Source: an uncultured Pirellulales bacterium (GTDB taxonomy: Bacteria > Planctomycetota > Phycisphaerae > Sedimentisphaerales > Anaerobacaceae). From it: DNA of 61,249 nucleotides. Location of the stretch: assembly GCA_964530105.1 (NCBI GenBank), contig CAZHBL010000001.1:1-61249 (forward strand). Reading direction: 5' to 3'. Positions 5,644 to 25,373 of this stretch are shown piece after piece; positions within the stretch are counted from its first letter, which is position 1, and each line of letters starts with the position of its first letter. The notes beneath the pieces are model-generated. The model searched no databases. It had not been told where the DNA came from and was given only the letters and a program-made list of their open reading frames with translations. The position numbers and the translations under genes are program-made.

Positions 5644-7698
5644 TTATTCTTCTTCTTCCGGTTCCCTCTGATACGGAGGCTTATAGGGATCCGAGATGTT
5701 GTGCATTATATCAGGAGAAAAGTCTGCATGAGAACCATGGCACACTATGCACGTCTCCACCTCGTTACCACTATACGGGTCGTCCGGCATCATGAAAAAC
5801 GTCATTAATTGACCGTGGTATATTGCTTCATCGCTGTCATGGCACGCAAGACACGCCAAGCGGGACGGCTCTTGTTTCCACATAGGATTATCAGCATGGC
5901 ACTTGGTGCAGTTCCTTATATCCTGCGGGAAGATGATTGAGCTGAAGTGTTCTGCATCTTCTTCGCCGTGAATTTCTTCGGGCTTGTCGAGATAATGACC
6001 ACGATGGACGCCGTGAATCCTCCGGGCTAAAGGAGCTGCGCCGAATCCCCAGTTCGAATCGTCCCACCCCGTCTTTCCTGCCAACTGGTTCTGATAATCA
6101 TGGCAGTTCTTGCAGACATCGGGATTGAAGGGGTATGAGCCGTGCATTTTGGTATCGCCGTGGCAATCGGTGCAGTTCGTGCAAATCTTCTGCTCCTCGG
6201 TCTCTGTGCCCACCTGGAAGTTAAGGACCGCCACGATGGCCGGATTATCGACATACCTTAGCTGGACGAAAACGGTGTACGTACCCGCCTCAAGGCCGGC
6301 AACATCTGCAAGCTGATAAGTGATGTCCTTAGCTGAACGCGAAACACCTGGATTTTCATCTGCCGGATCAGTACGAACCCGCAAGTCGTTATAGATATAA
6401 GAAGTCGATCCTGAGAGTTCATGATCGGCAGCGGCTGCAGTCAACGCCGGTTCCGTGTGGTCACGCGGACCAGAAACCTGCAAGCGGAAGCGATTCCAGT
6501 CTGCCTCGGTTATGGTTGCAGGATCGACGGCGAGGCTGGTGGCTGCGTTTTTGACGGTTACGGTAATCTGCGGCTTTTCGCCATCCACGTAGTGGGTCCC
6601 GTTGGCCGGTAGAGTCATGCCGAGTTCTACAGTAAACTCCGTACTCAAATCAACCTTGTGAACCATGGCAATGGGTGCTGGGGCCGTGCCCTCTGTCCAG
6701 GAACCGTCTGGCGGATGACAAAAAGAGCAGTCGGAATCGTTAGTCTGTTGACCGCCCGGATGCGCCTCAGCGGTTTGAGGTATTTCGGCAGCACTTCCAA
6801 ACCAGATATTATCATGGCAGGTGCCACAGGCCAGGCGAGAAGGTTCGGTTTTCCAGCGGTCATCTACATGGCACTTTGTGCAGTTCCGGACATCCGCGGG
6901 AAATTCAACATCTATATAGTCGCTAAAAATACCGGTATTCGGATCGTTGTTACGTGGATTCTCTAAATTCGCTCCCATGTGAATACCATGGATCCGATGT
7001 ATAATGGGATCGGGAATACGCACATCCTGATCATCCGGATCACGATACGCCGCATATCCATCGTTGTTATGACAGCTCTTGCACGTTCTGACAGCCCACG
7101 AGTCAATTGACGGGGACCCAAAAGAACCTTCTGAATGAGGATCGACGTGATGAAAGTAATATTGTCCATTATCAGCACCCAAATGGCAGGCGCCACATTT
7201 TTCCCTCTCAACTATTTGTGTTTCAAAAATATCCGTCCCGATCTGGAAATCAAGCAGTGGAAACGACTGAATGGTCTCATCCTGCATAACCGCCCTAAGA
7301 CCGATTGTATACGTACCTGGTTCCTCGTCGGAGACCGCCTGTAGATTATAGGTCAGGATATTGGCGTTAATATCTACACTTAGATCTGTTATAAGATCAA
7401 TATAATGGTGAGGCCTCACAGAGCGGTCCGTAGATGCGTTTAGCAACTTAACTGCCGTTTTAGTTTGTGTTGTTTCCTGTGGGCCATATGCATATAAACT
7501 TAATTGAGAATAGTCCTCCAGGCTAAACTGGCCGGGTAAAGAAACGGTAACTATTGGACTCTCACCAACGACAAAGTAAGAACCATTTGCCGGCTCCGAA
7601 ATACTCAGTAATACTTCTTCCTCGGCTACCTGCCCAATCGATCCAACGGTAAATATCGCAACGACCGCCACAAAGGTTAATGCTGATAATCTTTTCAT
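5644..7698 (-). CDS. Secreted decahaem c-type cytochrome built as (beta-domain + pentahaem) x2, an MtrC/OmcA-like architecture
   Basis: 684 aa with a signal peptide. Ten CXXCH motifs (CGACH, CKSCH, CTKCH, CGTCH, CSFCH / CTDCH, CKNCH, CTKCH, CLACH, CIVCH). Internal duplication is visible: RNCTKCHVDDRWKTEPSRLACGTCHD vs RNCTKCHADNPMWKQEPSRLACLACHD, and EPGTYTIGLRAV..LLDFQIGT vs EAGTYTVFVQLRY..VLNFQVGT. Confidence 0.85.
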   Translation of the reverse strand: MKRLSALTFVAVVAIFTVGSIGQVAEEEVLLSISEPANGSYFVVGESPIVTVSLPGQFSLEDYSQLSLYAYGPQETTQTKTAVKLLNASTDRSVRPHHYIDLITDLSVDINANILTYNLQAVSDEEPGTYTIGLRAVMQDETIQSFPLLDFQIGTDIFETQIVEREKCGACHLGADNGQYYFHHVDPHSEGSFGSPSIDSWAVRTCKSCHNNDGYAAYRDPDDQDVRIPDPIIHRIHGIHMGANLENPRNNDPNTGIFSDYIDVEFPADVRNCTKCHVDDRWKTEPSRLACGTCHDNIWFGSAAEIPQTAEAHPGGQQTNDSDCSFCHPPDGSWTEGTAPAPIAMVHKVDLSTEFTVELGMTLPANGTHYVDGEKPQITVTVKNAATSLAVDPATITEADWNRFRLQVSGPRDHTEPALTAAAADHELSGSTSYIYNDLRVRTDPADENPGVSRSAKDITYQLADVAGLEAGTYTVFVQLRYVDNPAIVAVLNFQVGTETEEQKICTNCTDCHGDTKMHGSYPFNPDVCKNCHDYQNQLAGKTGWDDSNWGFGAAPLARRIHGVHRGHYLDKPEEIHGEEDAEHFSSIIFPQDIRNCTKCHADNPMWKQEPSRLACLACHDSDEAIYHGQLMTFFMMPDDPYSGNEVETCIVCHGSHADFSPDIMHNISDPYKPPYQREPEEEE

Positions 7699-8017
7699 CC
7701 TGTTCTCCTTTCATCATTTCTTAATATACGATGCAAAACTCTACACTGTCTAAATCAAAGCCCTGCTGCCATTGACACGAGCTTTGCACAATCATCTACA
7801 TTACTTAATAACCAAGTTTATCGGTTATCTTCTATTTGTATTTGTTTTGAAACTTAATCATAATATAAATGGCCACTCTATTAAATCGGGGAGTTGCTGA
7901 TTTTGCTGTAAGCCTAACCTTTACAACGTATGGGTTAATACCTTATAGCTCTGGTGAAAAAACGAAGACTTTTAAGAAAACTGCGCTTGAGTTTTATGCA
8001 AAATAAAAACTCAACGA

Positions 8018-8734
8018 TTATATTGTAGGGAACCAAGTTTTATCTTGCCTACTAACCCACTGAAAAGCGCATCGGAGCAGTTCAGAGCCACTGCTCAGGT
8101 TCAGTTTCTTTTTGATACGAGACCGATAAGTCTCGATGGTTTTTGCGCTCAGGCAAAGCTGTTCGGCAATCTGGCGAGTCCCCTTCCCTTGGCCAATTAG
8201 TCTGAACACCTCCAGTTCACGATCTGTTAAACGGTCTATCGGCGAAGTACCAGCATCAGACTCATCGTTACCGATCAGGCTATATAGTAATTTTTCTTTC
8301 ATCGCTTCATTTAGGTACAATCGACCCTCTAAAACTTTGCGAATTGCCGTAATGACATTCTTTGTGGCTTCCTTCTTCGTTATATAGCCTTTTGCTCCCG
8401 CTCTAATGGCACGTTGAGCATAAAGAGATTCCTCATGCATAGACAGGGCTAACATAGGCAAGTCTGGGAAGTGAGCCTTGATGTCTTTCATCAAATCCAA
8501 ACCGCTCACGTTTTCAAGAGAAATGTCAACCGTTACTACATCGGGTTTCAATTTTTTTATAGCTTTGATTGTCTGATGTATGTCTTTGGCCCAACCACAT
8601 ACTACAATATCTTCTTCCTTATTTATCAGATCAGTAAGCCCTTCTATTACAATGGGATGGTCATCGACAATCAGAACTTTTCTTCTATTCTTGTTGGCTA
8701 CGTTTTGTCGTACTGCACAAACCATAAGTTCCAC
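8018..8734 (-). CDS. Two-component response regulator, NarL/FixJ (LuxR-type HTH) family
   Basis: 238 aa. REC domain (KVLIVDDHPIVIEGL.., DVVTVDISL). C-terminal HTH LTDRELEVFRLIGQGKGTRQIAEQLCLSAKTIETYRSRIKKKL. Confidence 0.9.
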   Translation of the reverse strand: MELMVCAVRQNVANKNRRKVLIVDDHPIVIEGLTDLINKEEDIVVCGWAKDIHQTIKAIKKLKPDVVTVDISLENVSGLDLMKDIKAHFPDLPMLALSMHEESLYAQRAIRAGAKGYITKKEATKNVITAIRKVLEGRLYLNEAMKEKLLYSLIGNDESDAGTSPIDRLTDRELEVFRLIGQGKGTRQIAEQLCLSAKTIETYRSRIKKKLNLSSGSELLRCAFQWVSRQDKTWFPTI

Positions 8735-8755
8735 CTATCTTGTTATAAATACTCT

Positions 8756-10342
8756 TCATTTGAGATTACAGGTTACAATCGTTCCCCCATTGTCTCCTTT
8801 ACGGACCTCCATCAAGCTGTTCATTACCTCAGCTCGATATCTCATAATTCTAAGTCCCATACCGTCCTCGCAGCTCGATCCCGCCGGAAAGTCCACACCG
8901 TCATTTTCAATTGTCAATCTTAAGCAACTACGTTCTGCAACCAAACCTATCATTATATTTTTTGCGTGGCCATGCTTGATAGCATTGGTAATAGCCTCTT
9001 GAGCAATTCTATATAGATTCGTCGCAACCGAAACATCATTAATTGAGACAGCGTTATCACACTTCAAGGTACACGAAACATCAAATAGTTCTTCCGTATT
9101 TGACGCTAGCTCCTGTATTGCTAATGCTAATCCATCTCTATCCAAATCAATGACGTGAAGCCCTTTGGCGAGATTGCGCGTCTGTTCGGCTGCCTGACCA
9201 AGACGTGATTTTATCTTCTCAGCATAAGTCATTTCTTCAACCAATGATTTGGTAGCCAACTTCTCTCCAAGTACTTCCATCATAAATGCTATCCCTGTTA
9301 GTTGCTGACCTATACTATCGTGTAACTCCTGTCCTATTCGCTGTCGCTCATGCTCAACGATGCTTAATAATTCTTTCTCCAAAAGTTTGCGTCTCTCAAT
9401 CTCCTTTTGCAGTTGCTCGTTAGCTTTTGTTAGTTCTGTCGTACGGGCTTGCACGAGCTCTTCTAAGTGCTCACGATGTTGCCTCAAATCTTTTTCCATC
9501 TGCTTCCGTTCGGTTATATCACGGAATATCTCCAGCTTCGAGATGCTTCCATCCGGATTGCGGATTGGGGTGTCGAGCAGATCATATGTTTTGCCGTTCG
9601 CTGGACAGTGCCATTCCCAACGAACGGTAGCACCATTTAAAACGTCCTGACTTATGCACCATGGACATTTATCCATGCGATTATAGAAGTAGTCATAGCA
9701 CTTTTGTCCGCAAGTCGATCCAAACGCCCTTTTGAGTGCAGGATTGATATATTGTATGTCGTATTGATCACTGGCAATATATACGCCATCTTCCATTGAA
9801 TCCAGAATGTTGGTCAATTTGTCCTTCTCAAACTGCAAAGCCTCTTCGGCTCTTTTGCGATCGGTGATATCTAAACAATACTCGATCATCTGGACAATAT
9901 TTCCACCATTGTCAAAAATCGGGAAACCATGAACCTCAACATTTCTTGTATTACCATCTTTATCGTAGTGGATATGCTCGACCGTCACAGGTTTCCTTGT
10001 TTTTTTCACCATTTCGAGCGGACACGGATGATCCTTACTTCCACACGGCTCGTTTTTTCTGTGAGTAAGAGCATGACAGGTTTCCGCTCCAATCGTGCCA
10101 TCCAAGTGAGCGGCGGAGTTTGTCATCTGGATCGTGTAATCCCTAGCGTCTATGACATAGAACGGATGTGTTAAAGACTCCAATACAGTTTCCAAGAACT
10201 CACTTCGCCCTAAGATATTTCCTGCTTTTGGCTTATTCGAATCAATGGCTTTCTTAGATTTGGTCCTTGCTTTCTTCATGTTACAAACCACTTGCACGAC
10301 TGGCCCTGCCAACTCGTTGACAAAGCCTATGTTAAAACGCAA
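8756..10342 (-). CDS. Cytoplasmic sensor histidine kinase with two Cys-rich PAS domains, HisKA_3 and HATPase_c
   Basis: 528 aa with no TM helix. H-box ERQRIGQELHDSIGQQL. N-box ITNAIKHGHAKN. G-boxes ENDGVDF / GMGLRIMRYRA. PAS cysteine motifs ETCHALTHRKNEPCGSKDHPCP and STCGQKCYDYFYNRMDKCPWC. The ORF starts at a TTG (10340-10342) preceded by AGAGGGG; an alternative ATG lies at 10279. Confidence 0.85.
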   Translation of the reverse strand: MRFNIGFVNELAGPVVQVVCNMKKARTKSKKAIDSNKPKAGNILGRSEFLETVLESLTHPFYVIDARDYTIQMTNSAAHLDGTIGAETCHALTHRKNEPCGSKDHPCPLEMVKKTRKPVTVEHIHYDKDGNTRNVEVHGFPIFDNGGNIVQMIEYCLDITDRKRAEEALQFEKDKLTNILDSMEDGVYIASDQYDIQYINPALKRAFGSTCGQKCYDYFYNRMDKCPWCISQDVLNGATVRWEWHCPANGKTYDLLDTPIRNPDGSISKLEIFRDITERKQMEKDLRQHREHLEELVQARTTELTKANEQLQKEIERRKLLEKELLSIVEHERQRIGQELHDSIGQQLTGIAFMMEVLGEKLATKSLVEEMTYAEKIKSRLGQAAEQTRNLAKGLHVIDLDRDGLALAIQELASNTEELFDVSCTLKCDNAVSINDVSVATNLYRIAQEAITNAIKHGHAKNIMIGLVAERSCLRLTIENDGVDFPAGSSCEDGMGLRIMRYRAEVMNSLMEVRKGDNGGTIVTCNLK

Positions 10343-10575
10343 TTTTACCCCTCTCTTGACTGCTTGTTATCTATTCTGCCCTGTTGCCCTGCAATATTCC
10401 TCATTGTGCAATCTGGAATGGCCGTTGTCAAGTGTACACATACGATTACATGGTTTGCCACCGTTAAAACCAATGCCCCTTTTTGTACAAGCAGATAATT
10501 CACGATACTCTTGTATCGTCTCGGATTAGGATATAGTGAGAGCAAAGGATTCACTTGCATCAGTGTTTGACGTTA

Positions 10576-11490
10576 TCAGTGAAGGTATCTCTTGCGATAA
10601 ATCAATAGCAATCCCGCAAAACTCAACAAAAATAATACCGACGAAATCGTAAATTTTGCCTGCCTGGTCTTGGCCAATGACAGTGACTCGATCATATTAT
10701 ATGTCTCTTTAGTAAGATCTGCATTGGTTCCGATACTCGATGCAAACTCGTTAATCTCTCTCATATTAAAGCTATGAAATGTCTGTCGTAATTGTGATAG
10801 CGTTTCACGGCTGTGATGATACATTTTATCCATTGCAAGGTTTTTGTAGCCATGCGCTTCCAGCCAGTCATAGAGTTTGGAGGAATTCTCTAACTGCAAT
10901 TGAGCGTTAACCATTATATGATAGATATTTGAGACTGCTTCCATCGTTGCAACACGGTGGCAAGTAGCGCAGCGGCCTCCCTCACTGCGGGACTTCACAT
11001 CGATGATCTCAGGACGGGATTCCTGGATGGCATGAGATCCCCTGCCGTGACAGTATAAACAGGTCGGATTGCCTAATTCCCCGTGAGGTGATCCCAGATG
11101 TTTTTCTTTAATATTGGAATGACACTTGCCGCAAAAGTAGCTGACAGCTCGCCCTCGCACAGCACTGGTAAACAGACTTTCGGTTCGCGGTACCAGCAAG
11201 AACTCTCTATCACGGTGTAAATGCGAGTGGTTCTTGAAGGCTTCCTCGCTGTCAAATTGGCCCTGTTTGACCGAAGGATCACCCCCATGGCATCCGTCAC
11301 AGGTGACGTTGTTCCGAAAGTGAATGCTTTGTTTCCATTCCTGCACCACTGCACTGAGCTTTCCAGGCAGGTTCTGATGGCAGGACACACAAGCATTGTC
11401 TTTGTAGGTACTGTCATTGGTCGATGCCTCGGCGCATATTTCCGACAGGAATACTAAACAACCGCAACAAAACAATAATCTCAACTTCAT
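10576..11490 (-). CDS. Pentahaem c-type cytochrome with a C-terminal membrane anchor; the cytochrome-c subunit of the Rieske/cyt b complex
   Basis: 304 aa. Signal peptide, then CVSCH, CDGCH, CGKCH, CLYCH, CATCH. C-terminal TM FTISSVLFLLSFAGLLLIY. Its start overlaps the upstream gene by 4 nt. Confidence 0.8.
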   Translation of the reverse strand: MKLRLLFCCGCLVFLSEICAEASTNDSTYKDNACVSCHQNLPGKLSAVVQEWKQSIHFRNNVTCDGCHGGDPSVKQGQFDSEEAFKNHSHLHRDREFLLVPRTESLFTSAVRGRAVSYFCGKCHSNIKEKHLGSPHGELGNPTCLYCHGRGSHAIQESRPEIIDVKSRSEGGRCATCHRVATMEAVSNIYHIMVNAQLQLENSSKLYDWLEAHGYKNLAMDKMYHHSRETLSQLRQTFHSFNMREINEFASSIGTNADLTKETYNMIESLSLAKTRQAKFTISSVLFLLSFAGLLLIYRKRYLH

Positions 11491-12518: not shown

Positions 12519-12550
12519 TTATAAATCTCCCATTTGATCGGATACTCCTG

Positions 12551-13222
12551 CTACAAAGGGCGTGAGATCCCGGTTCGTCGTATCATAAGAAAATGCAGCA
12601 CCATCATGAGAACACACAATGCAGGCAGAACCCAGATGTGCATAGCAAAAAAGAATCCCAGTGTCTCGCCGCTGATATTCTGGCCTCGTCTAATCAATAC
12701 GACGATAAGCTCTCCCAGAAGCGGGACCGCCGAGGGGATTTCAGTTCCCACTTTCGCTCCCCAGTATGAAAGCTGCGTCCACGGCAGCAGATAGCCCGTA
12801 AAAGCCATCATCGTCGTGGCCAACAAGAGGACCGAGCCGCTGATCCAGTGCAACTCACGCGGTTTGCGGAAAATTCGCAGGTACACAACGCGCGCCATGT
12901 GCAGGAAGACCAGGGCGATCATCATATTGGCGCCCACGGAATGGACCCGCTGAATCAACCAGCCCATCGGGACGTTGCTCTTGATGAATGTCACGCTGTC
13001 CCAGGCTCGTTCCGGATCCGGCTTATAGTACATAAGCAACAAAATACCGGTAAAGACCTGGATCATAAAAATCAGGAAGGCCAGCCCTCCAAAGCATCCC
13101 GCCCAGCTCAGCGTCATGGGAACCTGCTTTTGGGTAAGATTCTTTTGAACGACCGGAGTCAGATCGAAGCGGTCGTCCAGTTCTTTTCTGATACGCTTTA
13201 TTAATTCGATTAGTTTGCTCAT
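12551..13222 (-). CDS. petB: Cytochrome b6-type (split cytochrome b, N-terminal four-helix haem-binding subunit)
   Basis: 223 aa, alignable by eye to plastid/cyanobacterial b6 (GWLIQRVHSVGANMMIALVFLH.., PRELHWISG, LPWTQLSYWG, ..HFLMIRRTGISRPL*). His pairs are H-x13-H in helix B and H-x14-H in helix D. A Cys in WAGCFGG sits at the b6 haem-ci position (YCLGG). Confidence 0.85.
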   Translation of the reverse strand: MSKLIELIKRIRKELDDRFDLTPVVQKNLTQKQVPMTLSWAGCFGGLAFLIFMIQVFTGILLLMYYKPDPERAWDSVTFIKSNVPMGWLIQRVHSVGANMMIALVFLHMARVVYLRIFRKPRELHWISGSVLLLATTMMAFTGYLLPWTQLSYWGAKVGTEIPSAVPLLGELIVVLIRRGQNISGETLGFFFAMHIWVLPALCVLMMVLHFLMIRRTGISRPL

Positions 13223-13228
13223 TGCACT

Positions 13229-13717
13229 CTACGAGATCACGATCACGTTATTCTTGATTTCAAAGCTGATTTTTTTCAGCGGCACATTGGTAGGGCCTTT
13301 GACGACCTGTCCTTTGTCGTCGAAAACGGCTCCGTGGCACGGGCAATGAAAAATGTGCTCGTTCGGGTCCCACTTAACCAGGCAACCCAAATGCGTGCAC
13401 GCAGAATCGAAGACTTTGGGCTGCCGCTCCGTAAATATCAATGCAATTTGTGTACCCTGCCGGTCGAAAAACAATGCCTGGTCCTCACTCAAATCAGCAA
13501 TGGGAACTTCGATTTTTCTGGCTGTGTTGATTCGCTTCGGCAGGCGAAAAAATGAAAAAACCGGAAATGCGACAATGCACGCCGCGATACCGGTCATCAT
13601 GGCAAAACAAACATGGAAAAACCCCCGCCTGTTCTTCCGTGCCGAGACGGGTGCCGGCGAATTCGCTTTGGGGCAAGCGTAAGCGTTAGCTCTTTGATTA
13701 TCCTGGTTATTGTTCAT
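13229..13717 (-). CDS. Rieske [2Fe-2S] subunit
   Basis: 162 aa. TAT-like RKNRRGFF plus a TM anchor. Cluster boxes CTHLGC and CPCHGAVF. Confidence 0.9.
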   Translation of the reverse strand: MNNNQDNQRANAYACPKANSPAPVSARKNRRGFFHVCFAMMTGIAACIVAFPVFSFFRLPKRINTARKIEVPIADLSEDQALFFDRQGTQIALIFTERQPKVFDSACTHLGCLVKWDPNEHIFHCPCHGAVFDDKGQVVKGPTNVPLKKISFEIKNNVIVIS

Positions 13718-13757
13718 TTCAAGGCCCTTTCATTATATGTATGAAAACCCGGGTGTG

Positions 13758-16193: not shown

Positions 16194-16289
16194 TCTGCGC
16201 GCCCAACAATTGATGAGAAATTCTCTACATTATCAATTTACAAATTCCGATTTTAAGTCAGCAATCAGCATCTCTTAATCATTTTTCAC

Positions 16290-16763
16290 TCACTCGGCGT
16301 GTAAGGAATCGGCCCGAACAAGGACGTCCATCGCATCGGCCGGAGTCTTTGCTTCAAACAACTGATTTCTTAGCTCGGGGTTTGTCCCAAGACGTGCAAT
16401 CCCGGCAAGTGTGCGAACGTGCCTCTGGAAAGCCCCCTGTGGAATAAGCAACAGGATAATCAACTTTGCGGGCTGCCCATCGTGCGACTCGAAGGGTATG
16501 CCCGTCCGGGAAGTACCAAGGGCGGCTATGACGTCCTGAACGCAGTTTGCCACAGCATGAGGTACGGCGATGCCATGCTCGAGGCCGGTGCTGAGGGACC
16601 GTTCGCGATCAAATACGCCTTCTATGATCTCGTTTCTGTCTGTCAGTCGCAACTCGTGCGCGGAAATAAGAAGATCAACCAGCTCCTGGATTGCCTCCCA
16701 TTTGGTCGTTGCATCCAGATCTATTTTGATAATATCTTCTCTCAGTATTTCGGTTAAACGCAC
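16290..16763 (-). CDS. ptsN: PTS EIIA type-2 domain protein (EIIA-Ntr / PtsN-like regulator)
   Basis: 157 aa. PTS_EIIA_2 pattern with the phosphorylatable His in GLEHGIAVPHA. Starts 15 nt after the V-ATPase D gene. Confidence 0.7.
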   Translation of the reverse strand: MRLTEILREDIIKIDLDATTKWEAIQELVDLLISAHELRLTDRNEIIEGVFDRERSLSTGLEHGIAVPHAVANCVQDVIAALGTSRTGIPFESHDGQPAKLIILLLIPQGAFQRHVRTLAGIARLGTNPELRNQLFEAKTPADAMDVLVRADSLHAE

Positions 16764-16778
16764 AATCTTACCTCACAT

Positions 16779-17453
16779 TTACGTTTGCCCCGAAGAAACA
16801 TCTTCGTACTCGCCGAGTCCTTCGTTTTTGCTTCGGGTCTTCTTCCGCTTCAGCCTTTTAAGCCTGAATGTGTCTTCGCGCTCTCGCTGATCAAGCGTAT
16901 CACGGATAAAGCCGATCTGCTCTCGCAGGCCCGGCAGCAGACGCTGCTCGAGGGCATTAACCCGGCGAGATGTTTTCCTGATATGCTCGGCCAGCACGGC
17001 AAGCTTATGCTCTACCGGAGCTACGTGAATCGCATGTTCGATGACCTGCTCGAATCGCTCTGCAGTTTCATCGATTCGAGCGCTGACCGTATATGACGTA
17101 TAGCCGCGAGATTCGGAGGCGCGAACCGAATAGTCGCTCGTTACATCGATCACACTGGCGCCCCAGATATTCCGCTTCTTCAACTCTACCGTCACGGGCC
17201 GGTGCGTTGCGGAGGATACCGAGGAAAGTGTTTCGGTCCCATCGACTGCGATGGCAGTTAACAAAGACTGAACGGCTTTGATTACGGCCGAGCGCATCTT
17301 GTCTCGTTCCGACGAGAAATCTTTGAGTTCCTTTAGAAATTCCCTTATGAGCACCTCCCGTTTGGATCGGAGCATCTGTGCACCCTGCTCGGCCAGGCGG
17401 ACCTGTGCACGCCGGGTAAGCAATTCCGTTCGTGTCGGACTTACCTGTTCCAT
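16779..17453 (-). CDS. atpD: V/A-type ATP synthase subunit D
   Basis: 224 aa. N-terminus PTRTELLTRRAQVRLAEQGAQMLRSKREVLIREF is typical of subunit D. Last gene of the operon. Confidence 0.85.
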   Translation of the reverse strand: MEQVSPTRTELLTRRAQVRLAEQGAQMLRSKREVLIREFLKELKDFSSERDKMRSAVIKAVQSLLTAIAVDGTETLSSVSSATHRPVTVELKKRNIWGASVIDVTSDYSVRASESRGYTSYTVSARIDETAERFEQVIEHAIHVAPVEHKLAVLAEHIRKTSRRVNALEQRLLPGLREQIGFIRDTLDQREREDTFRLKRLKRKKTRSKNEGLGEYEDVSSGQT

Positions 17454-17507
17454 CGACTACCGTTCCAGGTTCCCATTTTGCGATTTTTTTGTAAAATGGG
17501 GTCCCTA

Positions 17508-18926
17508 TCAATAAAAAGGTGTCTTAACGCCATCTTCCATCAACTCTGAAAAGTACCTGCTTATCAGTTCCTTATTAATCCTGCGGAGTTCAGATTTCGG
17601 TATAATTCCCAGTATCTTCCAGCCGATGTCCAGCGTCTCAGCGATGGATCTTTCCTGATCCGCCTGGTGAATCATCTGCTGTTCGAACAAGTCGGCAAAT
17701 CGCAGAAACTTTCTGTCGAGGTCGCTGAGCGCTTCTTCGCCGACAATTGCGGTCAGCCGCCTGATTTCCTGCCCTTCAGCATAACATGAATAAAGCTGAT
17801 TGGCAAGCTCCCGGTGATCCTCGCGTGTGGACCCGGCCCCTATTCCGTTATTCATAAGTCTCGAAAGCGACTTGAGAACATCGACCGGCGGGAAAATGCC
17901 TCGTCGATGCAACTGGCGGGAAAGCACTATCTGTCCTTCGGTGATATAGCCCGTAAGGTCCGGTATGGGATGGGTGATATCATCATCCGGCATGGTGAGA
18001 ATGGGAAGCAACGTAACCGAACCGTTCAATCCTTTTATGCTTCCCGCCCGCTCGTAAAGTGTTGCTAAGTCCGTGTACATGTAACCTGGATATCCTCGCC
18101 GTCCGGGAATTTCTTCCCTTGCTGTCGCCACTTCGCGCAGCGCTTCGCAGTAGTTCGTCAAGTCGGTAAGGAGCACAAGAACGTGAAAGCCCCGCTTAAA
18201 AGCGAGATATTCTGCGGTTGTCAATGCAAATCGCGGTGTCAGGAGTCGCTCTATCGTCGGATCGCTCGCCAGGTTCATGAACGTAACGCACCTGTTTCGG
18301 GCTCCGGTTCTTTCGAATTCCGATAGGAAAAAGGAGGCCTCGCGTTTGGTTATTCCTATGGCCCCAAAGACAACCACAAACCGCACGTCTTCCCCAATAG
18401 CTTTGGATTGCCTTAGTATCTGGGCGGCGATCTCGTTAGCCGGCAGGCCGGAACCGGAGAAAATCGGAAGCTTTTGTCCACGGACAAGCGTGTTGAAACC
18501 ATCGATGGCCGATATGCCGGTCTGAAGAAAATCTCTGGGCCGTTCTCTCGAAACGGGATTTATTGGGGTGCCCGATATGGGCAGCGACTCATCCGCGACA
18601 ATTGGAACCAGACCGTCGGTAGGTTTTCCCGAACCGCTGAAAACTCTTCCTATCAGCGCTTCGGAGACCCCGAATCTCACCTCCCTATCCACCAGCGATA
18701 CACGCGTATTAACAACGTCAAGCCCCATGGTCTGTTCGAAAACCTGAACGACGGCAATCGTATCCGAGACCTCAATTACCTGCCCGCCGCATTTTTCCCC
18801 GTCCGGCGCTGTGATCTCAACGAGGGCCGAATAAGGAAGGTCCGAGGCACTCCTGAGATAAAGAAGCGGACCGGCGATGCGAGTTACACCGCTGTAATGT
18901 TTCTTCATTAATTCTTTTGATTTCAT
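17508..18926 (-). CDS. atpB: V/A-type ATP synthase subunit B
   Basis: 472 aa. Conserved B-subunit stretches: [45 protein letters not shown]. Confidence 0.9.
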
Positions 18927-20716
18927 GATTTGTTCTCACTCAACGACAAACTTCCAAAGGAATCGGTAAGTTGTTTTTCAAGAGCCTCGCACCGACGGTC
19001 ACATCGATCTTCCGCAACTTCGCGCAACCGCGAGACATCCTCGCGGACGGGCAGTGCGAGCATTTCGTCCAAGTCACATCCTTTTGAAAGTGCATCGGTG
19101 CACTTCGAATAGAAAGCCAGAAGTATCTCCAGCATTTTATGTTGTTTGTGAACGGAACATGAAGCATCATACTCCGACATTGCATTTTGTTGAAGAAAAC
19201 AATCGCGGAGCATCCTGCTGGTTTCCAGAACCAGGCGGTCCTGCGGAGGAAGGGCATCGGGCCCGACCAACTGGACCATCTCCTGCAGTTCAGCATCTTT
19301 CTGGAGAATTTCGAGCAGTGTCTCCCGAAGCCCGGACCAGGCTTGATCGACGTTCTTCGAGAACCAGCCTCGGAGCGTTTCGACGTAGAGGGTATAGCTG
19401 CGATGCCAGTTGATCGCCGGATAGTGTCTTCTGCGGGCAAGTGAGGCATCCAATGCCCATAAAGCACCTGTTACACGTATTGTGCTCTGCGTGACGGGTT
19501 CTGAAAAGTCGCCACCGGGGGGAGAGACTGCTCCGACGATTGTTAGCGATCCCGTTCGCTCTTCTTTACCGAGACATTGTACCTTTCCGGCGCGTTCGTA
19601 GAACGATGCAAGCCGAGAAGCAAGATAGGTAGGATAGCCTTCTTCTCCCGGCATCTCTTCGAGCCTGGAGGATATTTCCCGCAGGGCTTCGGCCCATCGA
19701 GAGGTTGAATCGACCATGACCGCGACAGAATGGCCCATATCCCTGAAATACTCCGCCATTGTGACCCCGACGTAGGACGATGCCTCGCGTGCCGCAACGG
19801 GCATATTGGAGGTGTTCACAATCAGCACGGTTCTGTCCATTAGTTTTCCGCCCGTTCGAGGGTCGCTGAGTAAAGGAAACTCCGAGAGCACATCGGCCAT
19901 TTCGTTGCCCCTTTCTCCACAGCCAACGTAAACGATTATCTCTGCGGCGGAGAATTTTGCCAAAGACTGCTCCAGCACGGTTTTGCCGGTGCCGAACCCG
20001 CCCGGCAGACACGCCGTTCCGCCCAGCGCTATGGGAAACAGGCAGTCCAGGACCCGCTGACCGGTAATAAATGGCTCAGTACAGTCGAGCTTGTTCTTCG
20101 ATGGGCGGGGCGTCTTTGCCGGCCATTGCTGGGCCAGGCACAGCGATCGGCCGTCGTCCAATGTACAGACTGTATCGAGCACTGTAAATTCTCCCTTGTT
20201 GATTTTGGCTATAGTACCTTCGACTGCGGGAGGGATCATGATAGTATGAGTGAAAGTACTTGTTTCGGTCACTTGGCCGATACTGTCTCCGGGTTCGACT
20301 TTCTGCCCGACCTTGACATCCGGCTCGAAGAGCCAGCTTCTCTCGGTATCGAGAGGTTCCGCCGCCAGTCCGCGGGAGATAAAATCACCGCCTGATTTAC
20401 GTAGCATTTCCAGAGGTCGCTGAACTCCGTCAAAGACGTTTCCAAGGAGTCCCGGTCCCAGAGTGACTAACAGTGGGTGTCCGGTTCCCACTACAGGCTC
20501 GCCTATGGATATCCCGGAGGTATCCTCGTAGGTCTGTATAAACGCCGTATCTCCATCCAGACGTATAATCTCCCCCATAAGCCCGGCGGCGCCAACCTTA
20601 ACAATCTCATACATACGTGAGCCGCTCATGGAACGGGCAATAACTGCAGGCCCGGAAACTTTTATGATGGCACCATTAACACTTTTCCTGGAACTTGCCA
20701 TTTTTTTGAACCTCAC
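18923..20716 (-). CDS. atpA: V/A-type ATP synthase catalytic subunit A
   Basis: 597 aa. Walker [46 protein letters not shown]. 4-nt overlaps with both F and B. Confidence 0.9.
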
Positions 20717-21048
20717 AATTTTATATTAAGCTGATAGCCAATAGCAAGCCGTATAAGACGGGCCACATAGTCATCCTGCGGCAGCCTTTCGGTATCGCGC
20801 CAGCGAAGCTCGCCGTCGATGGATACAAGCATGGGCCCGTTGCCCCGGGACAGGGCCGTTTTAACCTGCTTGTCGAGTCCGGATGACAACTTTTCGTCCA
20901 TGATGACAATACCGTATTGACCACCTGAGATTATCTTTGCCAAAGCCTGGGAGGCCTGTTTTGCATCGGAGACCGTGCAGGTCTCGAGGCCTGCAAGTGC
21001 AAAACCTCTGGCGAGTTCTTTTTCACTAATTGCTAATACCTTCAACAA
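20713..21048 (-). CDS. atpF: V/A-type ATP synthase subunit F
   Basis: 111 aa. [21 protein letters not shown]...YGIVIMDE pattern. Position between C and A. Confidence 0.75.
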
Positions 21049-22093
21049 GGAAAAGCTCCTCTCTTATGGCAGGTGCGGGCTTGCCGAATGAGTTATCTCT
21101 CAGGAGTATTCTGAGATTTATAAATTCGTTGTATTTCCTCCATACATAGCCCATTGGTACACCGATTCCGAGCGGGTCCGCTCTGAACATTTTGCAGCCG
21201 GTTTCAACGATCTCGATATCGAGGAATCGTTCCATGACGGCCAGCCTTCGGGACTCACCAAACGCCAGAATGCCTCTGTCTATCGCGCGTCTGAAATATG
21301 TATCAGCCAGAATTTCAAAGCTCATTTCAAGAGAAGAGCTTTTCTCGACCTCCGAAAGCATTCGAGCAGTAATACGGCCGCCGGGAATAGGTACAATGCG
21401 GTCAGGACGACGGCCGGATTGAACCTGTGAAACGGCCCACAAGACATTCTTGACATTGAGCAGGTCTATCTGGTTTCGAATGTGGTTCCTCATCAGGTTG
21501 TGGTCCTCGTCTTCGACAGTAAGATTATCCAGTGCCCATTCGAAGAAAATTCGCATGAATCTGGGTTCCATGAAAGCACAATTAAATTGGCCGGAATATT
21601 TTCGTATGACTTTCTGTAGCTCGAAGGTGAACGGGAAGTTCCACGCCGTTAGAGCATCGATTACGGTTTTGACATTGTCTTCTGCTGCAAGTTCTTCCAA
21701 TTCCACATCGCCTAACTCGCCAGCAGGAAAGACAGCGGTAAGTATCTCTTCCGGCAACAGTTCCGCGGCCTTACCTCGTATAATGGCAATGATATTCTGC
21801 GTGTCCCACATGCGGAATTGAATGTTCAGCAGTTGGCGCGGCTTGGGAGCAGCTAAAGCGCGGATCTTCTCGAATGTGTCGAACAGGTTGCGGCGCAGGC
21901 CCCACTCGATACCTGAGACGCTTCGGTCACGCTCCAATGCTTCCCTAATGTGAGTGCTGTAGGACGAACTCAGGAGCGCATCGACCAATGGGGCAGTACC
22001 CTGGCTTACCAGTATCTGCTCATAGAATTCCCTGGCCAGCAGATTACTGTGCATTCCCTTGATCCGAGCGTTCAAATAGTCGTACTCGCTCAT
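21026..22093 (-). CDS. atpC: V/A-type ATP synthase subunit C (V0 d-like)
   Basis: 355 aa. N-terminal YDYLNARIKGMHSNLL motif. Position between E and F. Confidence 0.8.
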   Translation of the reverse strand: MSEYDYLNARIKGMHSNLLAREFYEQILVSQGTAPLVDALLSSSYSTHIREALERDRSVSGIEWGLRRNLFDTFEKIRALAAPKPRQLLNIQFRMWDTQNIIAIIRGKAAELLPEEILTAVFPAGELGDVELEELAAEDNVKTVIDALTAWNFPFTFELQKVIRKYSGQFNCAFMEPRFMRIFFEWALDNLTVEDEDHNLMRNHIRNQIDLLNVKNVLWAVSQVQSGRRPDRIVPIPGGRITARMLSEVEKSSSLEMSFEILADTYFRRAIDRGILAFGESRRLAVMERFLDIEIVETGCKMFRADPLGIGVPMGYVWRKYNEFINLRILLRDNSFGKPAPAIREELFLVEGISN

Positions 22094-22704
22094 TTACTCT
22101 CTTCTCCTGAAGTTTCGCCGTCAAACAGAAGCTCAATCAGTTCCCGTTTCATTACCCCTTGAGCCATTTCCATTCGGGTTTCAATGCTGTTGTCGATAGA
22201 TTGTGAGCCTCCATCGGTCTCGACAATGAAAGTTCCTTTCGGACCATCACAGACCACTACTGAGATTGACGCAGGTAAATCCCCTAACAGCGATTTGGCC
22301 AGCGACAGATCGGCCTTGGAGATTCGAAGACGCATATCATCGCAGTTTACTCTGTCGATGGCTTCCTGGACGAGCCGTTTGAAGATATCTTTGTATGTCT
22401 CGGTATCGTACAGTATGGCGATCTGCCCGCTCGCGAGTTCAAAAACCTCCCTGAGAGCCTCATTCTTCACTTCAATGAGTCGGTCGCGGATTTCGAGCTG
22501 TGCTTTACCCACAATACATTCGGATTCCATGCGGAGCTGGTTATCAAGCCCGGCGAGCGCCTCGTCGTGGAACTGCTTAATCTGAGCTTCTGTACTTTCA
22601 GTGATTTTAGCAATTTCCAGCTCGGCCTGCGCGCGTACTTCGGCCTTTTCAGCGTCTGCCGTCTCTTTAATCGCAGCTAACAATTGCCTGACATCATCCC
22701 GCAT
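22090..22704 (-). CDS. atpE: V/A-type ATP synthase subunit E (peripheral stalk)
   Basis: Coiled-coil N-terminus plus a globular C-terminus. The ORF extends to 22752, but the ATG at 22704 (MRDDVRQLL) follows AAGGA and avoids a 32-nt overlap with K. Confidence 0.75.
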   Translation of the reverse strand: MRDDVRQLLAAIKETADAEKAEVRAQAELEIAKITESTEAQIKQFHDEALAGLDNQLRMESECIVGKAQLEIRDRLIEVKNEALREVFELASGQIAILYDTETYKDIFKRLVQEAIDRVNCDDMRLRISKADLSLAKSLLGDLPASISVVVCDGPKGTFIVETDGGSQSIDNSIETRMEMAQGVMKRELIELLFDGETSGEESK

Positions 22705-22720
22705 CTCTTTCAATCCTTTC

Positions 22721-23056
22721 TTATGTGAACAGCAGGACGACCGCAACGACAAATCCCAGTATAACCATTGTTTCCGGAATGGCCACTAAGAGAATAACTG
22801 TGCCGGACAGTTCCGGCTTCTCAGCCAGCGTGCCGCAGCCGGCGGCTCCGATTCGACTTTGGGCCATTGCCGTAGCCAGGGCACAAAGGCCAACTGCCAG
22901 GGCCGCCGCAACGGCTATTAATCCCAGGGCAAAGTCACTTTTTACGCCCTCGGTTGTTTGGCTGTCCGACTTCTGCTCGGCAGCTTGGCAATAAGTTGAG
23001 CAGAAAAGCAACAAACAAATCGCTATTATCACTCTTGCCCGTTTGACAAAACTCAT
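22721..23056 (-). CDS. atpK: V/A-type ATP synthase proteolipid subunit K (single hairpin, Thermus-like signal-type N-terminus)
   Basis: 111 aa. GLIAVAAALAVGLCALATAMAQSRIGAAG ... LLVAIPETMVILGFVV, with the conserved helix-2 Glu. Confidence 0.85.
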   Translation of the reverse strand: MSFVKRARVIIAICLLLFCSTYCQAAEQKSDSQTTEGVKSDFALGLIAVAAALAVGLCALATAMAQSRIGAAGCGTLAEKPELSGTVILLVAIPETMVILGFVVAVVLLFT

Positions 23057-25014
23057 AACATTTCTCCTTTCGTTCTGAATGGACAGTAGACTCTTCCACC
23101 CGTAGAGTAGAATTTTGAAAAGAATTCAACATAATGCAAACGCAGTCCTTGTATGGTCGGATCGACAATTCCCAACACTAAGTTCAGCGCATGAAAAAGT
23201 ATGACGACGAGGGCCGCCAAGACAATGTTTCCAATGGCCCCGCCGAAACGATTGGCCAGCATGGCAAGGACCGCCGAAGCCATTCCTATCGCCATGATTC
23301 GAGCGTACGAAAGAACGTTTCCTACCGTGCTTAACAATTCCAGAGGCAGAATCATACCGTGCATGGGGTGGTTAATCATGGAGACTGCCATCAGAATGAA
23401 GAAGGCAAGAAGTGCTCCGATTCCAACCGTGGAAAAAGCTTCAGGCAGCAGGCGCGCAAGCCTTGCCACGATGAAGAAAAGGCCAACGAGTCCCACTATT
23501 CGCGCCAAACAATCGATGGCCTTGCTCTTTTCGCCCGTTCTGCGCGCGTTGAATATGCCGAGCACGAGCCCGCACAAAGTATGCGCGATGCCTACGGCCA
23601 CCGCCAGCAAAAGATAGCCCAGCAGTGCTCCTGTTTTATCGGGGCCATCCAGCGCGAGCCGTTCTCTCCAGAGGGGTCTAAGCCCCAGATGATGCCCGAA
23701 GGTTCCGAAGAACTCGCCAAAGACAAAGCCGAAGATGATAGTATAGAACGCACACCAAGCCAGAACTGTGCCGAGTGCACGAGCCAAGTTGCCGGAGCGT
23801 TGCCGAAATCGTAGAAAGAGCGCCCCGGCCGTGAGAAGCAGCCCGTAACCGATATCTGCAAGCATAAGTCCGAACATCGGAGGGAAGAATGCTGCAACAT
23901 AAGATGTGGGATCAATAGTTCCATAACGCGGAAGGGGGAACAATGCAAGCAATTGCTCGAATGGCCGAACAGGACTGGCGTTTGACAGGCGAACCGGTGG
24001 AGTATTGACTGTCTCACGCGAATGAAGTTTCTGAACGACTATGGGCCACTGGGATATTGACTGGATCCGGGTCGAAAGTGTTTCGATATGTGTGGTGGGA
24101 ACCCAGCCATGAATTATGAACGTGTAGTCCGTCTGTGCAAAACTGGCGATGGCATTAAATCTGCTGAGTCGATCATCACAAACGGCTTTAAGCGCCAATA
24201 GAAGTGAAGCCCTCGTGGTGAAAAACTCCTGCATTTGGCCTGAAAGCTTCCGTTGCTCAGCCCTGAGTTTTGAAAGGTCGTTGCGGACGGTAATAAGAGC
24301 TTCCTCGAACGGCTTGTCCCTGAGCTGCCGTGGCCCGTGTATTTCGCTGATTCCCGCTTCGGAGATGAAATGTCGCACGTCAGAAGCGTACCGTTTATTG
24401 AAACCGACAAGGGCGGCGAGGCGACCGCCTTTGAGCTGGGCACCGAGAAATCGACACTGTCCCGAGGTAAGCTTATGAATATGTTCTTTCAGCAATGTCC
24501 TGGCGCTAAGGTTTTTTCGCTCGAAGATCACGCCTACGAGCTCGTAATCTCCGGGCAATTCGCTGCTTTCGACTAATGGAGCCAGCGCCTCGGCAAGTTC
24601 CTCGTATACGGCCAGAACCCTGACGTCATCGTCGAGGTTCCTTCTACGCCTCATAAAAGACCGAACCTGAGCGTGCACTTTTCTGGCCGTTGTCACTACC
24701 CCGATATCGTCACTCTTGGTCCACTGCCGGTACTGTGAAGCAAATTCTTCGGAGTTTCTCAGTCTCGAAACGAGCAGCTTCGGGATATGGGCAATACCGT
24801 CTTCCGTCAGCAGCTTGGAGAGTTCTTCGTATGTCTGACTTTGCCGCACCTGCTCTTCAGAAAGGTGTATCTTACGAAGAAACACAGTCTTGCTTTCACC
24901 GGCAATAGGAATCTCTTCGATGTGCATCACCCCGGTCTGCTGCAACGTATCAAGGACAGAATCAAAGACCTTTTTGGGGCCGATGATTTCGACGAAACTC
25001 ATGGCCTCTATCAC
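23053..25014 (-). CDS. atpI: V/A-type ATP synthase subunit I (a-subunit)
   Basis: 653 aa. Soluble N-terminal half plus a multi-TM C-terminal half containing the conserved Arg region VLSYARIMAIGMAS. Confidence 0.85.
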   Translation of the reverse strand: MIEAMSFVEIIGPKKVFDSVLDTLQQTGVMHIEEIPIAGESKTVFLRKIHLSEEQVRQSQTYEELSKLLTEDGIAHIPKLLVSRLRNSEEFASQYRQWTKSDDIGVVTTARKVHAQVRSFMRRRRNLDDDVRVLAVYEELAEALAPLVESSELPGDYELVGVIFERKNLSARTLLKEHIHKLTSGQCRFLGAQLKGGRLAALVGFNKRYASDVRHFISEAGISEIHGPRQLRDKPFEEALITVRNDLSKLRAEQRKLSGQMQEFFTTRASLLLALKAVCDDRLSRFNAIASFAQTDYTFIIHGWVPTTHIETLSTRIQSISQWPIVVQKLHSRETVNTPPVRLSNASPVRPFEQLLALFPLPRYGTIDPTSYVAAFFPPMFGLMLADIGYGLLLTAGALFLRFRQRSGNLARALGTVLAWCAFYTIIFGFVFGEFFGTFGHHLGLRPLWRERLALDGPDKTGALLGYLLLAVAVGIAHTLCGLVLGIFNARRTGEKSKAIDCLARIVGLVGLFFIVARLARLLPEAFSTVGIGALLAFFILMAVSMINHPMHGMILPLELLSTVGNVLSYARIMAIGMASAVLAMLANRFGGAIGNIVLAALVVILFHALNLVLGIVDPTIQGLRLHYVEFFSKFYSTGGRVYCPFRTKGEML

Positions 25015-25373
25015 GTTTCATCCCCCACGGCAATTACTGCATCTACTACTCTTTGAACGGCCCGGGCCATATTCCTCTTTACCTTTTGCTGCAAATGTGC
25101 TCTGCGTTTTTCCGAAGACCGGCTGATTTGCTCTGCCTGCTTCTGCAGCTCTGCCAGCCCATCCTTTCGTCTCTGTTCCACGAGTTCCGAGATGCTAAGT
25201 CGGCCTTCCTGGACGTGCTGTTCCGCTTGTTTCTCGGCTTGACTGATCTGATTCTCTGCTTCGTGCCGAACCTGTTTCAGCTCTGTCCTAAGTTGCTGCT
25301 CCTGCCTCTCTATGACCGGAATGAGTGAAGCCTGACGTTCGTCTTGTGTGTCTTTACCTTTAGTTGCCGACAC
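25011..25373 (-). CDS. V/A-type ATP synthase small coiled-coil stalk subunit (G/H-like)
   Basis: 120 aa, highly charged and helical (..EQQLRTELKQVRHEAENQISQAEKQAEQHV..). First gene of the operon. GTG start at 25373 preceded by AAGGAGAG. 4-nt overlap with I. Confidence 0.6.
   Translation of the reverse strand: MSATKGKDTQDERQASLIPVIERQEQQLRTELKQVRHEAENQISQAEKQAEQHVQEGRLSISELVEQRRKDGLAELQKQAEQISRSSEKRRAHLQQKVKRNMARAVQRVVDAVIAVGDET

Follow-up and report, generated by a model that had tools for sequence, protein, structure and literature searches.

A 61,249-nt stretch of DNA from an uncultured Pirellulales bacterium (contig CAZHBL010000001.1 of assembly GCA_964530105.1, placed by GTDB in the Sedimentisphaerales; the whole stretch is called the window below) encodes, between positions 5644 and 25373, a rotary ATPase of the V/A type, an EIIA(Ntr)-like protein, a Rieske/cytochrome b6 complex with multihaem cytochromes, and a two-component system next to a decahaem cytochrome. 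Compared with about 100 related loci, this span falls into three modules, A (25373-16290, the ATPase and EIIA), B (16193-10576, the Rieske/b6 block) and C (10342-5644, kinase, regulator and decahaem cytochrome), and we favor, with moderate confidence, the reading that it represents a lineage-specific juxtaposition of three separately conserved bioenergetic modules. An earlier, sequence-only reading of the same DNA had proposed a single module packaged with its own ATPase and regulators, a proposal that the comparison does not support, as A, B and C are each found alone, even in close relatives. We see no new category of system in the span: its components vary on kinds already known, and their assembly into one large package is confined to a single clade. 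What look under-described are the cross-phylum link between EIIA and the ATPase and the presence of a Rieske/b6 complex in a lineage that the literature describes as fermentative, next to which the package of ATPase plus cytochromes is of lesser importance.

Distribution of the three modules among relatives

Related loci were collected by an alignment scan with the 13-haem cytochrome of module B (hereafter c13), keeping one genome per GTDB species and 10-kb flanks, which yielded 80 loci; further loci came from EIIA homologues, from a metagenome scan with EIIA, and from homologues of the decahaem cytochrome. Window proteins were located in these loci by tblastn, and L-numbers below are locus labels. 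The genome loci nearest in c13 are labeled Sedimentisphaerales, Planctomycetota or, inconsistently, Pirellulales, and a stretch identical to the window was found on a JGI metagenome contig.

In module B, the order c13, thioredoxin (Trx)-fold/tetratricopeptide repeat (TPR) protein, Rieske, b6, (subunit IV) and pentahaem cytochrome (c5) was present in 42 of the 74 loci with enough downstream sequence, among them that of the cultured Fontivita pretiosa. ATPase and EIIA genes lay upstream of c13 in five of six loci at ≥75% c13 identity, in one of six at 57-65%, and in none of 67 at ≤56%. Gene order across A and B is not conserved across lineages: the ATPase-EIIA-cytochrome order does recur, in at least ten related contigs (L002, L003, L007, L009, L013, L088, L092, L093, L094 and L098, with the EIIA-to-c13 junctions of L092, L093, L094 and L098 coming from the metagenome scan), but these belong to one clade only.

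In rough neighbour-joining trees of c13 and b6, drawn without support values, the A-B loci formed one clade with a B-only locus, L008, nested inside (c13 78% identical, no ATPase upstream), and the sister group of this clade comprised L088 (A-B) and four B-only loci. Given this placement and the nested L008, A-B adjacency would be a derived trait of one clade that was lost repeatedly, or else one that was gained twice. In L008, an electron-bifurcation-type module stands in place of the ATPase: genes for a 1493-aa HdrA/NfnB-like flavoprotein, for MvhD (FlpD) and for a MetF-C-terminal (DUF5981) protein occupy positions 2110-9018 of that locus, before block B.

Conversely, the ATPase and EIIA genes were found without cytochromes in L087, L089 (Spirochaetia), L090, L096, L099, L102 and L103. 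Among these, L087 is a complete Phycisphaerales metagenome-assembled genome whose ATPase is 61-95% identical to that of the window (subunit B 95%, EIIA 89%), with a sulfatase following EIIA; in L096 the ATPase-EIIA unit is followed by Mrp/Nuo-like antiporter subunits, and unrelated genes follow EIIA in the Spirochaetia contig and in three further lineages. Module C seemed unlinked at first, as none was seen beside block B in the 80 genome loci, a view overturned by L097 and L104-L106. In L097, ATPase and EIIA are followed directly by kinase, regulator (77% identity) and decahaem cytochrome (72%) with the Rieske block absent; in L104, module C comes after c5 at the end of block B, an arrangement shared with the window; L106 carries module C alone. 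The kinase is linked to the regulator and decahaem genes in L097, L104, L105 and L106, in all of which the regulator is 70-83% identical and lies directly upstream of the decahaem gene. A 690-aa gene after c5 in L088 was considered as a hidden module C and rejected (no Pfam match, no decahaem similarity).

Overall, the combinations seen were A-B-C (the window), A-B, A-C, B-C, and each of A, B and C alone, which makes the modules separable units of inheritance. Among complete genomes of relatives, CP070806.1 carries only module A and OY970194.1 only module B, and the F. pretiosa genome with module B is CP191258.1. Within this clade they nevertheless tend to lie near each other and near other bioenergetic genes.

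Gene content of the span

The genes named in the sequence-only reading were all present in the list of open reading frames (ORFs), on the minus strand and with the same coordinates, and Pfam confirmed all of its domain assignments (Table 1). Tight spacing was confirmed as well, with intergenic gaps of ≤96 nt throughout 25373-10576 and a 4-nt overlap at five junctions, although this packed unit contains 16 genes (nine for the ATPase, EIIA and six more) rather than the 17 first counted. Co-directionality, which had been taken as a mark of positions 5644-25373, is shared by every called gene across 462-33185 and by itself says little for that reason. CXXCH motif counts were reproduced, with 28 in the span (13 in c13, five in c5 and ten in the decahaem cytochrome) and 33 in the window including the five of a pentahaem ORF at 462-2192; a six-frame check placed all of them in these four ORFs. 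The stated absence of a terminal oxidase or reductase catalytic subunit likewise holds for the large ORFs of the window (Pfam scans), and no MtrB/PioB-type barrel, ExtI-like porin or rhodanese domain was present among the window ORFs scanned.

A Rieske/b6 complex with multihaem cytochromes

Judged from its subunits, module B is a b6f-like Rieske/cytochrome b variant comparable to the complexes of Geobacter and of anammox bacteria, and most likely acts as a menaquinol:multihaem-cytochrome oxidoreductase. Its Rieske protein combines a Tat-type NRRGFF motif with a single transmembrane (TM) anchor at residues 36-54. Alanine instead of serine after the second Rieske box is a trait of low-potential, menaquinol-type Rieske proteins, and the CPCHGA box of the window protein suggests that it belongs to this low-potential type. 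The b6 subunit aligned end to end with its best solved match, Chlamydomonas b6 (1q90_B, E=4.3e-51), and keeps the four haem-ligand histidines as well as a cysteine aligned with Cys35 of the Chlamydomonas protein (the haem ci site). Subunit IV has eight hydrophobic segments (~8 predicted TM helices), and its length in relatives ranges from 211 to 343 aa. The gene for c5, which at its start shares 4 nt with the 3' end of the subunit IV gene, encodes a protein with a signal peptide and a C-terminal TM segment (residues 280-298), features from which c5 would occupy the place of cytochrome f/c1, the third redox subunit being a pentahaem c rather than a monohaem cytochrome f/c1.

The c13 cytochrome matches the DmsE-family model TIGR03508 below its cutoff (E=2e-33, 116 bits vs. 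192) and PDB chain 6r2q_A (E=3.7e-17), which we take to be MtrA of the MtrCAB structure. Beyond the 13 CXXCH motifs noted earlier, which stand, it contains a CX4CH (C30..H36) and a CX3CH motif (C421..H426). All haem motifs, including these two, were invariant in an alignment with 17 homologues (42-74% identity), so that c13 may bind 15 haems and not 13. Homologues of c13 at E≤1e-10 numbered 2830, and the named ones were almost all from Planctomycetota or Phycisphaerae.

The Trx-fold/TPR protein showed a weak match to TPR_CcmH_CycH (E=1.2e-4). A role as redox-active thioredoxin was rejected, since it has no CXXC motif and its single cysteine is at position 248. In most of the 80 genome loci, some of them without Rieske/b6, its gene comes after that of c13, and the protein is probably a maturation or docking chaperone of c13, perhaps linked to the two non-canonical haem motifs.

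The kinase, regulator and decahaem cytochrome

The decahaem cytochrome of module C scored 181 bits against TIGR03507 (cutoff 209) and matched MtrF (3pmq, E=1.6e-7). Its CXXCH motifs fall at residues 168-324 and 509-650, i.e., in two pentahaem domains; one haem-free stretch precedes the first domain and another separates it from the second. A Sec signal is present, and the first 35 residues lack cysteine and hence a lipobox. Chloroflexi and other phyla have homologues that are 50-60% identical, and as some of these carry collagen, dockerin or SpaA-type domains, which are surface-type domains, the comparison points to a surface or extracellular location for the window protein as well.

Upstream of it, the histidine kinase has no TM segment, and Cys/His-rich stretches in its PAS regions (..CHALTHRKNEPCGSKDHPCP.. 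and ..CGQKCYDYFYNRMDKCPWC..) could bind a metal or a redox cofactor. In the closest relatives, genes of the futalosine pathway of menaquinone synthesis (VitK2_biosynth and a fused radical-SAM/CofH_C gene) lie ~2 kb downstream of the decahaem gene (L104 12319-15355, L105 6199-9235); they are not at that position in the window. Two more distant loci carry MtrC-like decahaem genes directly upstream of c13 and block B: a single gene in L016 (7515-9707, distant Planctomycetota) and two in tandem in L021 (4768-9700), which also has a second c13-Trx/TPR pair. These decahaem proteins are 23-24% identical to that of the window.

Relation to known complexes

The sequence-only reading did not know this combination as a described module. 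The order multihaem cytochrome, Rieske, cytochrome b, membrane subunit, multihaem cytochrome is nonetheless already present in extKLMNOPQS of Geobacter sulfurreducens (within extHIJKLMNOPQS; GSU2930-2937), a set that adjoins a porin-cytochrome set and in which extMNOPQS encodes a 12-haem and a 10-haem cytochrome, a Rieske protein, a 23-kDa cytochrome b, a membrane protein and a 4-haem cytochrome (PMC5877670). This ext cluster appears to be the closest described analogue of module B. In both, the order runs from large multihaem cytochromes through a Rieske protein, a cytochrome b of the b6 type (~23 kDa) and a membrane subunit, small or extended, to another multihaem c. NCBIfam also ranked the window b6 highest against ExtP of the selenite/tellurite "ext" operon (224 bits, below the cutoff of 290), followed by cytochrome b6 (219 bits, cutoff 325), whereas the ExtKL match of the pentahaem protein at 462-2192 reached only 21.7 bits vs. 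a cutoff of 250. Unlike Ext, the window shows neither an ExtI porin nor an ExtH rhodanese among its scanned ORFs, and no cytochrome with selenocysteine, and the planctomycete block has a Trx-fold/TPR gene, an anchored pentahaem cytochrome instead of the ExtS lipoprotein, and an 8-TM subunit IV.

With the b6f complex and the b6c complex of Firmicutes/Heliobacteria, module B shares the split cytochrome b, the PEWY motif, the four haem histidines, the Cys35-aligned cysteine, the CTHLGC/CPCHG boxes of the Rieske protein and its Tat motif. It differs from them in that cytochrome f is replaced by a pentahaem c, that subunit IV has ~8 TM helices vs. three, and that c13 and the Trx/TPR protein are added as constant partners; no small Pet subunits were identified in the window. 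Rieske/b complexes of anammox bacteria, which belong to the same phylum, are encoded with multihaem c-type cytochromes (PMC12954380). The R/b-2 and R/b-3 operons of Kuenenia presumably include NAD(P)-oxidoreductase-like or HAO-like subunits, which are absent in the window.

As for Shewanella MtrCAB/OmcA, the window decahaem has two II/IV-type pentahaem domains and matches MtrF, and c13 matches 6r2q chain A and the DmsE family, but with 13-15 haems vs. 10; the window lacks an MtrB-type barrel and a decahaem lipobox, and both NCBIfam scores are under their cutoffs. A literature search for Rieske/cytochrome b in planctomycetes returned nothing, which is not proof of absence from the literature.

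Proposed electron path and its alternatives

What the comparison shows is domain content, motifs and how synteny is distributed; the quinone type, which way electrons flow, an acceptor outside the cell, what EIIA does and whether the genes are co-transcribed are inferences. The earlier outline of a path from quinol through Rieske/b6 to multihaem cytochromes fits the parts. In our proposal, menaquinol would be oxidized at the Qo site of the Rieske/b6 complex, with proton release and Q-cycle charge separation there, and electrons would pass from the Rieske protein to c5 and on to c13 as a periplasmic wire towards further acceptors. The decahaem cytochrome would be the likeliest distal acceptor or surface-exposed reductase and the next partner of c13, with its gene controlled by the PAS kinase/NarL-type pair. 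Menaquinone as the quinone is hinted at by the futalosine genes near module C in L104 and L105, and electron transfer to an extracellular acceptor is plausible. The ATPase appears not to be a dedicated part of this pathway and would use or build an ion gradient independently of it, while the EIIA of module A would tune the ATPase, or its expression, to the phosphoenolpyruvate (PEP)/phosphorylation state.

This matters since, in a class-wide survey, Sedimentisphaerales were described as strictly fermentative with the respiratory chain missing, and no bc1 complex was reported in Phycisphaerales (PMC11266412). Phycisphaerae are abundant in anoxic sediments, and the occurrence of the Rieske/b6-multihaem block in dozens of their species means that pathway-based annotation misses a quinol-oxidizing, energy-conserving step. 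Where MtrC-like cytochromes are attached to the block, metal or other extracellular electron sinks are suggested.

Several points weigh against the picture of three juxtaposed modules with an outward electron path. Most of the clade's informative loci have A next to B (c13 identity 58-84%), and A-C and B-C pairs are seen too, which leaves room for some selection for co-localization and hence for a functional tie between the modules. The role suggested for EIIA is drawn from gene adjacency. No outer-membrane porin, decahaem lipobox or terminal reductase was found in the window, and the retention of block B in lineages of very different lifestyle argues for a general complex III.

Developed in full, this last point makes block B a general Phycisphaerae complex III whose electrons go to soluble reductases of the periplasm that are encoded elsewhere and act on nitrite, nitric oxide, sulfur compounds or oxygen. 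The decahaem protein would then be an unrelated periplasmic cytochrome, with no extracellular acceptor, a reading that we regard as possible, if doubtful. The spread of block B through dozens of Phycisphaerae species, including the cultured F. pretiosa, would be expected from such a complex, as would a window with no porin, no lipoprotein signal and no reductase, and nitrate, nitrite and sulfur reductases have been reported in Phycisphaerae genomes (PMC11266412). Less easily accommodated are the closeness of c13 to the conduit cytochromes MtrA/DmsE and the MtrC-like decahaem genes that adjoin block B not only in the window but also in L104, L016 and L021. The domains found in decahaem homologues are moreover typical of surface proteins, and the nearest described analogue, Geobacter Ext, adjoins a porin-cytochrome conduit.

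A V/A-type ATPase operon ending in an EIIA gene

Module A encodes a full V/A-type subunit set (A, B, D, F, C(d), E, I(a) and K(c), all eight recognized by Pfam), preceded by a small coiled-coil gene that resembles subunit H/G. A gene of 117-120 aa likewise opens the ATPase operon in L002, L087, L089 and L090, and the window protein is 61-81% identical to those of close relatives. Subunit K consists of a 2-TM hairpin with a hydrophobic N-terminal extension (hydrophobic segments 1-19, 42-60 and 87-105); its carboxylate lies within an AIPETMV stretch, with Gln in helix 1 and Glu-Thr in helix 2. Because the proteins of relatives are 204 aa long (lengths from L002 and L087), the true start of subunit E is probably downstream of the TTG listed. 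Subunit B is 91-96% identical in relatives whose EIIA is ≥82% identical, and 76% in L088. The A/V-type operons of Thermus (atp) and Methanosarcina (ahaHIKECFABD) encode the same subunits in the same order, and we know of no EIIA gene ending an operon as a feature of these reference systems.

The tenth gene of the module encodes a protein whose best solved relatives are PtsN proteins (4gqx, E=1.2e-17), with the phospho-histidine kept as His69 in a GIAVPH motif; His69 and His115 were invariant in 11 sequences from several phyla. The window protein thus shares the PTS_EIIA_2 fold of PtsN/EIIA(Ntr), but it scored under the equivalog cutoffs of NCBIfam (TIGR01419 for PtsN, 64.2 bits vs. 138.7; PRK10896, 48 vs. 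221), and for that reason it is best described as an Ntr-like PTS_EIIA_2 protein and not as a demonstrated PtsN orthologue. Neither EI(Ntr) nor NPr/HPr appeared among the large ORFs scanned, which cover the 61-kb window only, and rpoN is not beside the EIIA gene in the window.

Across lineages and phyla, EIIA is 55-88% identical, and its gene stands directly after atpD in every full-length homologue for which upstream flank was recovered. This cross-phylum conservation and fixed position in the operon argue for a functional tie between EIIA and the ATPase. Operons of this kind in Planctomycetota, Spirochaetia and others lead to a testable hypothesis, namely that the nitrogen-type phosphotransferase system (PTS) regulates a rotary ATPase. 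A stronger version, in which EIIA serves a cross-phylum V/A-ATPase subfamily as a dedicated regulator or as a peripheral subunit and this ATPase is co-expressed with the Rieske/b6 complex and a surface decahaem cytochrome in a Sedimentisphaerales-like clade, we hold only tentatively and think rather improbable; if true, EIIA couples the PEP/phosphotransfer state directly to the rotary ATPase, and the co-expressed genes would offer a lineage known as strictly fermentative a compact way to respire with extracellular acceptors. A literature search for a V-type ATPase with EIIA or PtsN gave nothing relevant, which again is not proof of absence from the literature.

Two metagenome loci contain only the C-terminal two-thirds of EIIA (residues 61-157, 84% identity; L100 137-427 and L101 4619-4909), in L101 with no ATPase in the 4.6 kb upstream. 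These partial genes may be remnants of rearrangement.

Transcription signals and linkage of the modules

In the clade of the window, A, B and C follow one another head to tail, and the first terminator comes only after the decahaem gene, which makes read-through from the ATPase into the cytochrome genes plausible. The hairpin at that point, as well as which none of 200 shuffled sequences folded, is the only strong intrinsic terminator found. The EIIA-c13 gap measures 96 nt in the window; among relatives it is as short as 13 nt (L002), whereas L009 and L013 have ~195 nt, and the overall range is 13 to ~197 nt. The gap of the window contained no terminator-like structure (RNA fold z=0.07), and its promoter-like matches were weak. 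Scan totals were not clearly above those of shuffled sequences (promoter-like, 33 vs. 22.7±5.2; terminator-like, 22 vs. 20.4), and of the sites found only this hairpin and a perfect promoter consensus at 13761-13732 merit attention.

The one perfect sigma-70 consensus of the 20 kb falls in the Trx/TPR-Rieske spacer, and as it lies only ~14 nt upstream of the Rieske ATG, a transcript from this candidate promoter would be nearly leaderless. L007, the closest relative with a short spacer, keeps the -35 box and has TAGAAT as its -10 box, a partial retention seen in L007 only; L002, L008 and L013 have a ~130-nt insertion in this spacer. Upstream of the first ATPase gene is a 680-nt non-coding gap (25374-26053) with a promoter-like site (TTGACA-17-TATTAT) ~250 nt before the start codon. 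An Rfam scan of the whole window, including this gap, returned no family at threshold. In relatives without the ATPase (L004 ~9880-9920, L010 and L014), a conserved palindrome that resembles an operator, TATCCTACTAT-N10-ATAGTAGGATA, lies upstream of c13; the window does not contain it.

These signals bear on the view that all 19 genes form one co-transcribed respiratory island for extracellular electron transfer, with a dedicated ATPase, an EIIA switch and a two-component regulator, which we consider unlikely. Tight spacing and a sole strong terminator after the last gene are in line with such an island, as are the ATPase-EIIA-c13 order of the ten or more related contigs (with its 13-nt gap in L002) and the A-C (L097) and B-C (L104) pairs, which show modules staying close in the clade. 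Each module nevertheless stands alone in close relatives (A in L087, B in L008, C in L106), and ATPase and EIIA occur in Spirochaetia and other lineages with no cytochromes nearby. The variable EIIA-c13 gap and a perfect promoter consensus inside the supposed unit also speak against it.

MtrA homologues such as PioA and MtoA act in Fe(II) oxidation, bc complexes run in reverse in iron oxidizers, and V/A-ATPases of fermenters commonly act as pumps. Despite these precedents and the adjacency of ATPase and Rieske block, reverse flow, in which the multihaem cytochromes would take up electrons from outside (Fe(II), a cathode or a partner cell) for an uphill reduction of menaquinone by the Rieske/b6 complex, driven by an ion gradient that the ATPase builds, seems very improbable, as the sequences give no direction, the adjacency is not conserved beyond one clade, and neither carbon fixation nor any other energy-demanding reductive module is encoded in the window.

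Feature coordinates and other genes of the window

Table 1. Features of the span in gene order, with positions in the window and the supporting matches or motifs.
Feature	Position	Strand	Match or motif
Module A
H/G-like coiled-coil stalk subunit, first gene	25011..25373	-	weak V-ATPase_G_2 match, E=0.0066
Subunit I (a), membrane stator	23053..25014	-	PF01496 V_ATPase_I; 7 hydrophobic segments predicted, C-terminal half
Subunit K (c, proteolipid)	22721..23056	-	PF00137; NCBIfam V-type subunit K PRK06251
Subunit E	22090..22752	-	PF01991; listed start TTG
Subunit C (d/AC39)	21026..22093	-	PF01992, E=1.5e-46
Subunit F	20713..21048	-	PF01990
Catalytic subunit A	18923..20716	-	ATP-synt_ab, Xtn insertion and VA_C; Walker A GGFGTGKT, residue 239
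Non-catalytic subunit B	17508..18926	-	ATP-synt_ab and VA_C; no Walker A motif
Subunit D, central stalk	16779..17453	-	PF01813, E=1.1e-44
EIIA(Ntr)-like PTS_EIIA_2 protein, tenth gene	16290..16763	-	PF00359, E=3.6e-29
Module B
c13, periplasmic multihaem cytochrome, MtrA/DmsE-like	14841..16193	-	Paired_CXXCH_1, E=4.6e-65
Secreted Trx-fold and TPR protein	13758..14795	-	AhpC-TSA/Redoxin, E~2e-5; TPR_19, E=4e-12
Perfect sigma-70 consensus, Trx/TPR-Rieske spacer	13732..13761	-	TTGACA-18-TATAAT, 12/12; only one in 20 kb
Rieske 2Fe-2S subunit	13229..13717	-	PF00355; boxes CTHLGC and CPCHGA
Cytochrome b6-type subunit (split b)	12551..13222	-	PF00033, E=4.5e-55
Extended subunit IV, 343 aa	11487..12518	-	PF00032; PEWY at residue 72
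c5, pentahaem cytochrome c	10576..11490	-	five CXXCH; c3/c7-like Pfam matches
Module C
PAS-PAS-HisKA_3 histidine kinase, cytoplasmic	8756..10342	-	PAS_4, PAS_9, HisKA_3, HATPase_c
NarL/GerE-type response regulator	8018..8734	-	Response_reg and GerE
OmcA/MtrC/MtrF-like decahaem cytochrome	5644..7698	-	Mtrc-MtrF_II-IV, two stretches, E=2.5e-29
Intrinsic-terminator-like hairpin and UUUU, downstream of decahaem	5537..5568	-	fold z=-4.35

Outside the span, the pentahaem cytochrome at 462-2192 (minus strand) has an N-terminal CarboxypepD_reg domain in addition to its faint ExtKL match, and its gene overlaps by 4 nt that of a 908-aa BNR/Sortilin-Vps10 beta-propeller protein (2189-4915, minus strand). 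The two are an unusual pair and may form a second extracytoplasmic redox unit. On the plus strand, positions 34151-42142 encode a 2663-aa protein with SdrD_B, GEVED, DUF7901, cadherin-like, Big_9 and BNR-like domains; this giant protein is presumably an adhesin of the cell surface. A 249-aa ORF at 42187-42936 (minus strand) matches only the C-terminal quarter of Pyr_redox_2 and for that reason may be a gene remnant; the lowest GC content of the window (0.417, at 42001-44000) is found around it. Elsewhere, with a gene content typical of planctomycetes, the window encodes an extracytoplasmic function (ECF) sigma factor (PF07638), Ser/Thr kinases with WD40 or TPR repeats, and a GH92 protein.

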